Assembly: GCF_003334815.1 (NCBI RefSeq)
Contig: NZ_QOWO01000025.1
Direction: 5' to 3' (one strand)
DNA length: 64,000 nt
Origin: Escherichia coli
GTDB taxonomy: Bacteria > Pseudomonadota > Gammaproteobacteria > Enterobacterales > Enterobacteriaceae
The notes under the pieces were generated by a model. It saw nothing but the letters and a program-made list of their open reading frames with translations, searched no databases and was not told the origin of the DNA. Below are positions 8,150-11,617 of the stretch, piece after piece. How positions within the stretch are numbered: the stretch's first letter is position 1; each line of letters starts with the position of its first letter. Both the position numbers and the translations under genes were made by a program.

Positions 8150-8823
8150 CAAACGTTCTGATTGTTGAAGATGAACAGGCTATTCGTCGCTTTCTGCGCA
8201 CGGCGCTGGAGGGCGACGGGATGCGCGTCTTTGAGGCCGAAACGCTGCAACGCGGCTTGCTGGAAGCGGCAACCCGTAAGCCAGATTTGATTATTCTCGA
8301 TCTCGGCCTGCCCGATGGTGATGGGATTGAGTTTATCCGCGACCTGCGCCAGTGGAGCGCGGTGCCGGTGATTGTGCTTTCCGCACGCAGCGAAGAGAGC
8401 GACAAAATCGCCGCGCTGGATGCCGGAGCGGATGATTATCTGAGTAAGCCGTTTGGCATTGGCGAATTGCAGGCCCGTCTGCGCGTCGCATTACGCCGCC
8501 ACTCTGCCACCACCGCGCCCGATCCGCTGGTAAAATTTTCCGATGTTACCGTCGATTTAGCCGCCCGCGTGATTCACCGGGGTGAGGAAGAGGTGCATCT
8601 CACACCAATTGAGTTCCGCCTGCTGGCGGTGCTGCTCAACAATGCCGGAAAAGTACTCACCCAGCGCCAGCTCCTTAACCAGGTGTGGGGGCCAAACGCG
8701 GTCGAACACAGTCACTATTTGCGTATTTATATGGGACATCTGCGACAAAAACTGGAACAGGATCCCGCCCGCCCACGCCATTTCATTACTGAAACCGGTA
8801 TTGGCTATCGGTTTATGCTTTGA
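8146..8823 (+). CDS. kdpE: Response regulator KdpE (OmpR family)
   Basis: 225-aa [20 protein letters not shown]...; receiver domain plus winged-helix C-terminus; 4-bp overlap with kdpD. Confidence 0.95.
   Translation: MTNVLIVEDEQAIRRFLRTALEGDGMRVFEAETLQRGLLEAATRKPDLIILDLGLPDGDGIEFIRDLRQWSAVPVIVLSARSEESDKIAALDAGADDYLSKPFGIGELQARLRVALRRHSATTAPDPLVKFSDVTVDLAARVIHRGEEEVHLTPIEFRLLAVLLNNAGKVLTQRQLLNQVWGPNAVEHSHYLRIYMGHLRQKLEQDPARPRHFITETGIGYRFML
8694..8823 (+). repeat. Direct repeat copy 1 (3' end of kdpE)
   Basis: About 130 bp, roughly 92% identical to 13029-13158 by manual alignment. Confidence 0.85.
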
Positions 8824-8858
8824 ATATTAATTTTAATACAGCCTGCCTTTTATTAATT

Positions 8859-8888
8859 AAAGCCGTAATAATAAATACGGCTTTTTAT
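8859..8888 (+). terminator. Rho-independent terminator after kdpE
   Basis: Hairpin agccgta...tacggct followed by a T-run. Confidence 0.55.
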
Positions 8889-9056
8889 CTTAAACAACAC
8901 ACAAAAATAACAATTCAATATTTTATATTACTGAGTAAAAAGCTCATCATTAAATAAATTAAGATTGATCATTTTTTATTGATCACCTTCACAGTTCAAC
9001 CGTATTTCCTGGATAGAATATCTTCACCTTCATTCACATCAGGAAAGGTAAATTAA

Positions 9057-9161
9057 ATGGAAAATAACAGCCGCACTATGCCCCATATAAGGCGGACAAC
9101 TCATATTATGAAGTTTGCTCATCGCAATAGCTTCGACTTTCACTTCTTCAATGCCCGTTAG
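9057..9161 (+). CDS. speFL: speF leader peptide (ornithine-sensing ribosome arrest peptide SpeFL)
   Basis: 34 codons translating to MENNSRTMPHIRRTTHIMKFAHRNSFDFHFFNAR, matching the recalled SpeFL sequence; sits in the long speF leader. Confidence 0.8.
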   Translation: MENNSRTMPHIRRTTHIMKFAHRNSFDFHFFNAR

Positions 9162-9418
9162 TCTACCGACTAAGGGCACTTCAGCGTACAGGTCTTCCTG
9201 ACTCTCTGTATTACAGGCATATGCCTGTATTCCGCAGTGCTCATTCTCTGTTAACCCTTGTATTATCAGCCACCTGACTGGTAAGGGTTTCTGCATTCTG
9301 AAAAAAGCAATCTACCTGATTTATTTATCAGCGGGGTAACTTTGCTTTTTTCCGGCACGATCGATTTCTCATTCGAGAAATTGAGGACCTGCTATTACCT
9401 AAAATAAAGAGATGAAAA

Positions 9419-11617
9419 ATGTCAAAATTAAAAATTGCGGTTAGTGATTCTTGCCCGTACTGTTTTACCACGCAGCGAGAATGTATCTACATTAATGAAA
9501 GTCGTAATATCGATGTGGCGGCAATAGTTTTATCGCTCAACGATGTTACATGCGGAAAACTCGATGAAATCGATGCCACGGGTTATGGCATCCCGGTATT
9601 TATTGCTACTGAAAATCAAGAACGTGTACCCGCAGAGTATTTGCCCCGTATTTCGGGTGTCTTTGAGAATTGCGAATCGCGACGAGAATTTTATGGTCGC
9701 CAGTTAGAAACCGCTGCCAGCCATTATGAAACTCAACTGCGCCCACCTTTCTTCCGCGCACTGGTCGATTATGTCAATCAAGGTAACAGCGCGTTTGATT
9801 GCCCTGGTCATCAGGGCGGCGAATTTTTCCGTCGCCATCCGGCGGGGAATCAGTTTGTGGAATACTTTGGTGAGGCGCTGTTCCGTGCCGACTTGTGCAA
9901 CGCCGACGTAGCGATGGGCGATCTGCTGATTCACGAAGGCGCGCCATGCATTGCACAGCAACATGCGGCAAAAGTGTTTAATGCCGATAAAACCTACTTC
10001 GTTTTAAATGGCACTTCATCTTCTAACAAAGTGGTTTTAAACGCCCTGCTAACACCGGGTGATCTGGTGCTGTTTGATCGCAATAACCACAAATCTAACC
10101 ACCACGGAGCGTTGCTACAGGCTGGTGCAACACCGGTTTATCTGGAAACGGCACGTAACCCGTATGGCTTTATCGGTGGCATTGATGCGCACTGTTTTGA
10201 AGAAAGTTACCTGCGTGAGCTGATCGCGGAAGTCGCACCGCAGCGGGCAAAAGAGGCTCGTCCTTTCCGCCTCGCTGTGATTCAGTTAGGCACCTACGAC
10301 GGTACGATTTATAACGCCCGCCAAGTGGTGGATAAAATTGGTCATCTGTGTGACTACATCCTGTTTGACTCAGCATGGGTCGGCTATGAACAGTTTATTC
10401 CGATGATGGCGGACTGTTCGCCGCTGTTGCTGGATCTTAATGAGAACGATCCGGGTATTCTGGTTACGCAATCTGTGCATAAACAACAGGCTGGTTTTTC
10501 TCAGACTTCACAAATTCATAAAAAAGACAGCCACATCAAAGGGCAACAGCGTTATGTACCGCACAAACGCATGAACAACGCCTTTATGATGCACGCCTCC
10601 ACCAGCCCGTTCTATCCGCTGTTTGCCGCACTGGATATCAACGCCAAAATGCATGAAGGTGTCAGCGGTCGTAATATGTGGATGGATTGTGTGGTAAATG
10701 GCATTAATGCCCGCAAACTGATCCTCGATAACTGTCAGCATATTCGTCCGTTCGTACCTGAACTGGTGGATGGTAAACCCTGGCAGTCGTATGAAACAGC
10801 GCAAATTGCGGTTGATCTGCGCTTCTTCCAGTTTGTACCAGGGGAACACTGGCATTCTTTTGAAGGCTATGCAGAGAATCAATACTTTGTCGATCCATGC
10901 AAACTGTTGCTGACAACCCCAGGTATTGATGCACGTAACGGCGAATATGAAGCGTTCGGTGTACCCGCGACGATTCTTGCTAACTTCCTGCGCGAAAATG
11001 GCGTAGTGCCGGAAAAATGCGATCTTAACTCCATCCTCTTCCTGCTGACTCCGGCAGAAGATATGGCCAAACTTCAGCAACTTGTTGCCCTGCTGGTACG
11101 CTTCGAAAAACTGCTTGAGTCCGACGCGCCATTAGCAGAAGTGCTACCTTCCATCTACAAACAGCATGAAGAGCGCTACGCCGGTTATACCCTGCGTCAG
11201 TTGTGTCAGGAAATGCATGATTTGTATGCCCGCCACAACGTGAAACAACTGCAAAAAGAGATGTTCCGTAAGGAGCACTTCCCACGCGTCAGCATGAATC
11301 CGCAAGAAGCCAACTACGCCTATTTACGCGGTGAAGTGGAACTGGTTCGTCTGCCGGATGCAGAAGGCCGTATCGCTGCCGAAGGTGCGCTTCCTTATCC
11401 TCCGGGTGTGCTGTGTGTTGTTCCGGGTGAAATCTGGGGTGGTGCTGTTCTGCGTTACTTCAGCGCTCTGGAAGAAGGGATCAACCTGCTGCCAGGTTTT
11501 GCACCGGAGCTGCAGGGTGTCTATATCGAAGAACATGATGGTCGTAAGCAAGTTTGGTGCTATGTCATCAAGCCTCGTGATGCGCAAAGCACCCTGTTGA
11601 AAGGGGAAAAATTATGA
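9419..11617 (+). CDS. speF: Inducible ornithine decarboxylase
   Basis: 732-aa ORF, PLP-dependent Orn/Lys/Arg decarboxylase family; followed by potE with 4-bp overlap. Confidence 0.95.
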   Translation: MSKLKIAVSDSCPYCFTTQRECIYINESRNIDVAAIVLSLNDVTCGKLDEIDATGYGIPVFIATENQERVPAEYLPRISGVFENCESRREFYGRQLETAASHYETQLRPPFFRALVDYVNQGNSAFDCPGHQGGEFFRRHPAGNQFVEYFGEALFRADLCNADVAMGDLLIHEGAPCIAQQHAAKVFNADKTYFVLNGTSSSNKVVLNALLTPGDLVLFDRNNHKSNHHGALLQAGATPVYLETARNPYGFIGGIDAHCFEESYLRELIAEVAPQRAKEARPFRLAVIQLGTYDGTIYNARQVVDKIGHLCDYILFDSAWVGYEQFIPMMADCSPLLLDLNENDPGILVTQSVHKQQAGFSQTSQIHKKDSHIKGQQRYVPHKRMNNAFMMHASTSPFYPLFAALDINAKMHEGVSGRNMWMDCVVNGINARKLILDNCQHIRPFVPELVDGKPWQSYETAQIAVDLRFFQFVPGEHWHSFEGYAENQYFVDPCKLLLTTPGIDARNGEYEAFGVPATILANFLRENGVVPEKCDLNSILFLLTPAEDMAKLQQLVALLVRFEKLLESDAPLAEVLPSIYKQHEERYAGYTLRQLCQEMHDLYARHNVKQLQKEMFRKEHFPRVSMNPQEANYAYLRGEVELVRLPDAEGRIAAEGALPYPPGVLCVVPGEIWGGAVLRYFSALEEGINLLPGFAPELQGVYIEEHDGRKQVWCYVIKPRDAQSTLLKGEKL

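Follow-up and report, generated by a model that had tools for sequence, protein, structure and literature searches.

The window analysed in this work, a stretch of 64,000 nucleotides, includes a segment (8824-9418) that matches the kdpE-speF spacer of Escherichia coli MG1655 (NC_000913.3 720461-721055, reverse strand) with 100% identity; the window is E. coli K-12 DNA and this segment contains the leader of speF-potE. On its upstream side, the region that controls speF is bounded by a terminator-like hairpin with a T-run after kdpE (8859-8884, plus strand), which shows a 9-bp stem and a T-rich tail. At the other end lies the regulated gene, speF (9419-11617, plus strand), which encodes an inducible ornithine decarboxylase. 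[quoted passage not shown]

The plus-strand ORF (9057-9161) comprises 34 codons and a TAG stop, and according to the six-frame ORF listing it is translated as MENNSRTMPHIRRTTHIMKFAHRNSFDFHFFNAR (34 aa). All 34 residues are identical to the chain named SpeFL in the PDB entries 6TBV/6TC3, the Pfam family PF10940 'Leader peptide SpeFL' (formerly DUF2618) matches residues 8-33 with E = 4.6e-5, and the current RefSeq record of MG1655, NC_000913.3, includes b4803, 'leader peptide SpeFL', at the same bases; no NCBIfam model matched this peptide. By exact identity, as the initial annotation had stated, this ORF is speFL and encodes an ornithine-sensing ribosome arrest peptide; nothing in the sequence speaks against this reading. 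Residues 10-16 form the HIRRXXH ornithine-recognition motif defined in 10.1101/604074, which here reads H10-I-R-R-T-T-H16, and the phenylalanines of the Phe-rich effector core (F20, F26, F28, F30 and F31) are all found in the window peptide. The Shine-Dalgarno sequence of speFL, AGGAAAGG (9041-9048, plus strand), is placed 8 nt 5' of the ATG. The rare Arg codons AGG-CGG (9090-9095, plus strand) that specify Arg12 and Arg13 are evident from the sequence, and their association with slow translation comes from the literature.

The conservation of SpeFL was evaluated in speF loci collected by scanning one genome per species for the SpeF N-terminus, which yielded 80 loci with 64-100% identity. An ungapped full-length SpeFL homologue was found upstream of speF in 74 of these loci, which span Escherichia, Citrobacter, Salmonella, Enterobacter, Raoultella, Kluyvera and Hafnia, and also Edwardsiella, Morganella, Proteus, Serratia, Brenneria and Yersinia. 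The length of the ORF was scored in 73 loci, leaving out one contig identical to K-12: 68 have 34 codons, four loci of Morganella/Proteus have 35, and Yersinia proxima has 41. The HIRR..H residues are kept by all the aligned homologues except that of Y. proxima (HIQR), codon 12 is AGG, AGA, CGA or CGG in 72/73 loci, and a purine-rich AAGG/AGGA sequence is retained upstream of speFL in the other genera. When the peptide was searched exhaustively against protein representatives only 13 matches were obtained, a number that says little about its distribution because ORFs so short are seldom called. For the 73 distinct DNA sequences, the mean column entropy at the first, second and third codon positions of speFL was 0.39, 0.25 and 1.01, respectively. 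The pN/pS ratio, obtained by Nei-Gojobori-style counts, was 0.137 for the speFL frame with all sequences and 0.058 in a close set (SpeF identity of 88% or more) made up of loci from Escherichia, Citrobacter, Salmonella and others. These results show that SpeFL is under purifying selection across Enterobacterales.

The promoter of speFL and speF is predicted at 9010-9026 on the plus strand, with the −10 element TGGATAGAAT (TAGAAT at 9014-9019). It coincides with a GGATA(G/A)AAT block that is conserved 38-46 nt upstream of speFL, at an equal distance in Escherichia, Salmonella, Enterobacter and others. The transcription start mapped in Salmonella places the AUG of the homologous orf34 at +32 (PMC6386406), and since the register is the same, transcription of speFL and speF would start near A9026 (9057-31 = 9026). 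A simple sigma-70 consensus scan of positions 8780-9480, which is crude and weak evidence alone, gave no site for speFL or on either strand; therefore, the speFL promoter is placed by homology only. Downstream of the peptide, the speFL-speF spacer (9162-9418, plus strand) matches in length the '257-nucleotide' spacer of the published construct (10.1101/604074). It is C-rich and G-poor (rut-like) to about 9300, and the C/G ratio on the plus strand is 1.3-1.8 from 9065 to about 9300, a composition that would be expected of a Rho-loading region. The spacer also contains three inverted repeats (9253-9259/9283-9289, 9300-9310/9342-9352 and 9361-9370/9375-9384, plus strand) and a terminator-like hairpin (9330-9346, plus strand). 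A search of Rfam with 8700-9600 on both strands gave only a sub-threshold chance match to a Tetrahymena snoRNA; Rfam has no family for the speF leader.

Conserved RNA hairpins were analyzed in an alignment of 44 Enterobacteriaceae sequences that covers the last part of speFL and 75 nt downstream of it. The first hairpin (9152-9178, plus strand) is formed over the last speFL codons and the stop by the sequences UGCCC...GGGCA, with an inner stem GUC/GAC and an energy of -15.2 kcal/mol; it includes 7 pairs, 99-100% of the alignment cells are paired, and its closing pair covaries (CG 17, UA 13, UG 13). It matches the hairpin at which RNA polymerase pauses in the published model. Given that the Rho-terminated leader transcript of Salmonella has roughly 157 nt (PMC6386406), the hairpin would end, by homology, just before the predicted end of such a transcript, near 9182. 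The second one is a small, weakly supported hairpin, CAGG-UCUU-CCUG (9189-9200, plus strand), paired in 89% of the cells and with no compensatory change. The third (9212-9229, plus strand) has the form UACAGGC-loop-GCCUGUA, with 7 pairs of which 4 have changed on both sides, and it is paired in 94% of the cells with many G-U pairs. Overall, 95% of the cells are paired in the plus-strand hairpins versus 23-38% in slid controls, and among the 44 sequences changes on both sides occur in five pairs, with many G-U pairs. The minus strand folds equally well in K-12 itself, and we considered that these palindromic hairpins could serve a minus-strand RNA; this idea was rejected, given that the conserved G-U wobbles become A-C mismatches on the minus strand. 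Because the hairpins keep pairing through G-U wobbles across species, the structural constraints of the leader are on the plus strand.

The regulatory role of speFL has been established by experiments carried out on this exact sequence, which revealed that ribosomes stall at codons 33/34 in response to ornithine and that speF is controlled through Rho (10.1101/604074), and the same ornithine stalling and Rho control have been shown for the Salmonella orthologue (PMC6386406). In the K-12 leader, transcription would start near 9026, as deduced from the start mapped in Salmonella, and the 34 codons of speFL would then be translated. According to the published experiments, abundant ornithine is caught between the wall of the ribosomal tunnel and the HIRRXXH loop of the nascent peptide; the Phe-rich C-terminal part of SpeFL compacts, and release by RF1 at the UAG stop is blocked. 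In this published model, the stalled ribosome and those queued behind it cover a C-rich rut region, part of which lies within the last codons of speFL, Rho termination is prevented, and speF-potE is transcribed. At low ornithine the ribosome terminates, Rho loads, and transcription stops shortly after the hairpin at 9152-9178. The rare codons for Arg12 and Arg13 pace the ribosomes so that they are spaced to let Rho load when ornithine is low, and in Salmonella they also link the folding and stability of the speF mRNA to the supply of arginine.

The gene described here is the same as that of E. coli K-12 (b4803; UniProt SPEFL_ECOLI; PDB 6TBV/6TC3; Herrero del Valle et al., 10.1101/604074), from which it shows no difference: sequence, position, the 257-nt spacer, the UAG stop and the rare Arg12/13 codons are identical. 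The orf34 of Salmonella (Ben-Zvi et al. 2019, PMC6386406) is its orthologue, also with 34 codons and 91% identical in two Salmonella loci; the AGG-CGG codons and the distance from the −10-like block are the same, and the AUG would be at +32 in both. In contrast, the Salmonella leader is longer, with the speF AUG at +516 versus about +394 predicted here, and a UGA stop is given for the orf34 strain of that paper instead of the UAG found here. Like TnaC, the leader of tnaCAB, SpeFL is a short peptide that senses a free amino acid in the ribosomal tunnel and blocks release at its stop codon, and in both cases the stalled ribosome masks a rut site and prevents Rho-dependent termination. However, the peptide sequences are unrelated and the ligand is tryptophan for TnaC and ornithine for SpeFL, whose pocket has been described as a previously unknown ribosomal site for small molecules (10.1101/604074).

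An alternative for the function of speFL is that it acts mainly as a sensor of the arginine supply, through pausing at its two rare Arg codons in the manner of classical attenuation, and not as an ornithine arrest peptide. The conservation of these codons at positions 12 and 13 in 72/73 loci would fit this idea, and in Salmonella it has been observed that pausing at them shifts the folding of the speF leader and its sensitivity to RNase G with the arginine supply (PMC6386406). Nevertheless, purifying selection acts on the entire peptide and not only on the Arg codons, which is more than classical attenuation would demand; stalling is lost when speFL is frame-shifted, and ornithine is seen bound in the cryo-EM structure (10.1101/604074). 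In addition, published mutant data indicate that induction of speF by ornithine does depend on the start codon and the HIRR residues of speFL, and that HIRR mutants do not retain regulation. We thus consider it improbable that arginine sensing is the main role of speFL; the ornithine and arginine mechanisms are layered rather than exclusive.

Opposite to speFL, the minus strand contains the 85-codon ORF (9039-9296), whose ATG is located at 9294-9296 (MG1655 720583-720585). This ORF covers the same DNA, as was confirmed in the six-frame listing, and the initial annotation had mentioned a ybfK in this interval without being certain that it was this ORF; the correspondence is correct. No ybfK CDS is left in the RefSeq records of MG1655, W3110 or other listed K-12-type genomes, in which this strand is unannotated. 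A published promoter table shows 'ybfK >' beside '< kdpE', with a peak at the old coordinate 720060. The offset between the versions of the MG1655 genome is +777, as checked on the speF coordinates, which places the ORF at 719806-720063 in the old numbering; the published peak lies at the end of the ORF, and the orientation of the ORF is opposite to that of kdpE, as in the table. The codon counts published for YbfK (in-frame ACA 2, out-of-frame ACA 2, ACG 1, ACC 0, ACU 0, and 0 ACA in the 100 nt upstream) provide a second line of evidence. The ACA counts recomputed on the 85-codon ORF match these values, and the ACG, ACC and ACU counts fit as well, given that its three Thr codons are two ACA and the ACG of codon 47 (9156-9158). 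By position, orientation and this codon-count fingerprint, the antisense ORF is the former ybfK (b4590); a literature search for b4590 gave nothing relevant.

One possibility is that transcription of this strand yields a non-coding RNA, antisense to the speF leader, whose pairing with it would modulate the translation of speFL or the stability of the leader, in which case the ORF would be irrelevant. Nothing direct favors this possibility; antisense transcripts are common in E. coli, and a SELEX peak of sigma-S RNA polymerase has been reported near window position 9042, in an assay that gives no strand. This peak coincides with the predicted plus-strand promoter of speFL, which is a simpler explanation. 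Moreover, no minus-strand promoter-like site was found in 8780-9480 and no Rfam family on either strand, and the conserved pairings rely on G-U wobbles that are workable only on the plus strand. A regulatory antisense RNA is, in our opinion, very unlikely, and we return to the reading in which speFL is the functional element and the ORF opposite to it is a non-coding shadow.

The relationship between both frames accounts for the openness of ybfK over speFL. The codons of speFL start at coordinates divisible by 3 and those of ybfK end there, so that over 9057-9161 each ybfK codon and the speFL codon opposite to it are exact reverse complements (M-E-N-N-S-R reads ...A-A-V-I-F-H backwards). A stop in the antisense frame would correspond to a TTA, CTA or TCA codon in speFL, and SpeFL of K-12 has no Leu and both of its Ser codons are AGC; because these three codons are absent, the ybfK frame is open over speFL. 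Its openness is a side effect of the composition of SpeFL and, being automatic, speaks against the idea that YbfK is a real protein. The N-terminal half of the ybfK ORF runs over the non-coding leader. There are 146 ORFs of at least 85 aa in the window, of which 71 are nested in longer ORFs, and 37/71 of the nested ones are in phase and antisense to their host; in-phase antisense is the commonest kind of shadow ORF. The fact that only about 4% of the shuffled 595-nt spacers give an ORF of at least 85 aa could be taken in favor of a coding function; the length was nonetheless rejected as evidence of coding, since a frequency of about 4% is not rare genome-wide and the window alone has 37 in-phase shadows.

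The substitution pattern in the antisense frame is the inverse of that expected for a coding sequence. The third positions of ybfK are the first positions of speFL (entropy 0.39) and its first positions are the most variable (1.01). The pN/pS ratio in the ybfK frame was 1.31 with all sequences and 4.07 in the close set, and thus no purifying selection was detected in its own frame. When the close set is compared with K-12, 35 distinct substitutions are found: 29 leave SpeFL unchanged but alter an amino acid of ybfK, five alter both products and one is silent only in ybfK. Even if only the part over speFL is considered, stops interrupt the ybfK frame in 27/73 distinct sequences, in most cases because SpeFL has Leu (TTA/CTA) or Ser (TCA) at residue 7; therefore, such codons are not avoided. 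Among the corresponding antisense ORFs the median is 37 aa and only 8/75 have at least 80 aa; their starts and stops shift freely, and neither of them is conserved among relatives.

A similar picture was obtained within E. coli. The K-12-type spacer, of 595 bp, is present in ~1700 of 5426 complete genomes, and a 689-bp type, which was examined in one O157:H7 and one Nissle 1917 genome, in about 3318 (~61%). According to the alignment, about 50 nt of the 689-bp type are missing from the K-12 type, at the junction of 9259 and 9260, and the speFL-speF spacer has 257 nt in the K-12 type and about 310 nt in the O157/Nissle type; both haplotypes also differ by a 1-nt indel just 3' of the speFL stop, and in the 689-bp haplotype Leu7 of SpeFL is encoded by TTA. 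Only two residues of SpeFL distinguish these haplotypes. In contrast, the antisense ORF of O157 and Nissle has 45 aa with other start and stop, and that of E. albertii has 70 aa and different ends. In all the other genera, as in E. albertii and the majority haplotype of E. coli, the frame is interrupted or has other boundaries. The K-12 form is probably the derived one because E. albertii and the divergent 'E. coli E69' have the longer form. The 85-aa ORF in its present form is limited to the K-12-type leader haplotype, and a further genome of this type that was inspected has it intact. A search with the YbfK protein gave 14 matching clusters out of 5.8 billion; all the named clusters are from E. 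coli, 13/14 are at least 83% identical over the aligned parts and one is 78% identical, and the exact-sequence cluster includes a member from Shigella boydii. No Pfam or NCBIfam match was found for YbfK, and neither homologues beyond Escherichia nor domains were detected for it.

Regarding the signals for expression, no Shine-Dalgarno-like sequence is present within 13 nt of the ybfK ATG, where the upstream region reads ...GGTAGATTGCTTTTTTCAGA|ATG and the sequence just before the start codon is GATTGCTTTTTTCAGA, and the crude consensus scan gave no promoter-like site for ybfK on the minus strand of 8780-9480. Price et al. included YbfK among six proteins that are below 1 ppm by ribosome profiling, yet fitness-important in transposon data. 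Any transposon inserted in 'ybfK' has to lie in speFL or in the speF leader, and speFL was unknown when that work appeared; the fitness effect is equally well explained by disruption of the speF leader, which we infer is its likelier origin.

These observations bear on the possibility that YbfK is the product of a real and very young gene, exclusive of the K-12-type haplotype, expressed at a very low level and overlapping speFL in antisense. The ORF has an ATG start and is intact in the K-12-type genomes examined, its haplotype occurs in about 1700 complete genomes, gene-calling programs report it in over 1000 contigs, and the 'ybfK' insertions of Price et al. scored as fitness-important; a deletion of ~50 nt together with the 1-nt indel would have recently created ybfK, and a few copies per cell of its product would be responsible for part of the fitness effect, a scenario to which we give hardly any weight and that, if true, would make of ybfK a gene that arose de novo on the strand opposite to a regulatory leader peptide. 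Set against the missing Shine-Dalgarno and promoter-like signals, a ribosome-profiling signal below 1 ppm, a pN/pS of 1.3 to 4 and its removal from RefSeq MG1655 and W3110, the young gene is very improbable.

The comparison that had been suggested in the initial annotation, that of synonymous sites across Enterobacterales, clearly favors the plus strand, with 29/35 substitutions silent in speFL only. The other statements made there about the two strands also hold: the antisense ORF has no obvious ribosome-binding site, the coding constraint is on the plus strand (pN/pS of 0.14 in the sense frame vs 1.31 in the ybfK frame), as is the structural one through the G-U wobbles of the hairpins, and the view that the antisense ORF is probably not a gene is borne out by its inverse substitution pattern, the stops in 27/73 sequences and its median of 37 aa. 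We conclude, with a confidence close to certainty, that speFL is the ornithine arrest-peptide leader of speF and that the antisense ybfK is a non-coding shadow and no gene. In this regard ybfK resembles yceQ, a phantom ORF of E. coli K-12: both were annotated as hypothetical, have no homologues and lie over functional DNA that is non-coding or coded on the opposite strand, and ORFs of the yceQ type have no ribosome footprints and are disrupted in some E. coli strains. Unlike yceQ, ybfK has a translated leader peptide on the opposite strand, with which it is exactly in phase, and this provides a simple codon-level reason for its openness.

SpeFL itself and the removal of ybfK are both already known from the literature and the current annotation; the only new material, limited in extent, is the codon-level account of the shadow ORF and the comparison of haplotypes. 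The matter is mainly one of annotation hygiene and opens no new biological question. The old ybfK call did distort other analyses: a sigma-S RNA-polymerase peak that falls on the putative promoter of speFL was classified as located between two convergent genes, and a transposon fitness effect was credited to a protein, 'YbfK', that is present at less than 1 ppm. The codon-level reason for this ORF, that is, an in-phase antisense position over a peptide without Leu or TCA-encoded Ser, helps to filter calls of this kind. The gene that does occupy this DNA, speFL, controls polyamine synthesis under acid stress and represents a textbook-grade case of a ribosome and its nascent peptide acting together as a sensor of a small molecule.

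Within E. coli, the region between kdpE and speF occurs as two distinct spacer haplotypes (window 9162-9300; L084:1692-1950 and L085, both loci of the second type). Among 5426 complete genomes, the K-12-type spacer of 595 bp was found in about 1700, and the O157:H7/Nissle-type spacer of 689 bp in about 3318; the alignment of the two haplotypes is unreliable upstream of the promoter block, where divergence is too high. The K-12-type spacer lacks approximately 50 nt, which would lie between window positions 9259 and 9260. The core of this segment (L084:1810-1848; query positions 498-536) matches further chromosomal sites, of which a single genome has up to four, and some genomes match nowhere but in this core. 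The core is therefore a dispersed short repeat, and it may resemble the end of an ERIC/IRU element.

Two other small ORFs are found on the plus strand around speFL. In O157-type genomes PGAP calls an ORF of 44 aa (L084:1474-1608, L085:1542-1676 and L087:1662-1796) which shares 22 nt with the beginning of speFL; most often it is called a "hypothetical protein", but some records have "TonB-dependent receptor" instead. Extrapolation from Salmonella places the transcription start around 80 nt downstream of the first codon of this ORF, which is thus probably spurious as well. The second, a 25-codon ORF with a TTG start (window 8979-9056), has a TAA stop that directly abuts the speFL ATG (TAAATG); since the predicted transcription start lies downstream of its first codon too, and the other spacer haplotype does not conserve it, this ORF probably arose by chance.

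A genomic-SELEX peak for the sigma-S RNA polymerase has been reported at the old MG1655 coordinate 720060, where ybfK and kdpE were treated as converging genes on either side of it, so that it had no assigned target promoter (PMC5493296). This peak falls at about window position 9042, that is, in the predicted speFL promoter and 5' UTR, and it was the old ybfK annotation that caused it to be misfiled without a target.

In strain WP7-S17-ESBL-04 (NZ_AP022177.1; L003:1287-2115) speFL is interrupted by an IS1 insertion; what remains is a truncated speFL ORF (residues 11-34), called a hypothetical protein, which precedes an intact speF. Several strains carry a SpeFL T14K variant, also labelled "hypothetical protein" (for instance L002:1234-2595, NZ_CP025950.3); in the one strain inspected, the speF gene downstream of this variant is a frameshifted pseudogene.

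Outside E. coli, Edwardsiella anguillarum (NZ_CP006664.1) has two speF loci (L069 and L070) separated by about 840 kb. A separate SpeFL ORF lies upstream of each speF, and several residues distinguish one peptide from the other. In Morganella and Proteus (L073, L074, L075 and L077) SpeFL has 35 codons, the additional residue being an Arg that follows Gln/Lys34 at the C-terminus, and that of Yersinia proxima (L064) has 41 codons and a sensor motif, HIQRVIH, that is divergent. In a "Collinsella sp." MAG, one contig of 2.2 kb (L004, JAIJJM010000551.1) carries a SpeF N-terminus identical to that of E. coli K-12 and a speFL ORF whose DNA sequence is also identical; this contig is almost certainly a contamination of the bin. 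No SpeFL-like ORF was found between kdpE and the speF-like gene in four loci (L058, L060, L066 and L072), which belong to an Enterobacteriaceae MAG, Escherichia sp. ESNIH1, Pseudocitrobacter faecalis and P. vendiensis. In these loci the speF-like gene is the next gene after kdpE, and about 240-270 nt separate the two; they represent lineages whose ornithine decarboxylase gene in this place is leaderless.
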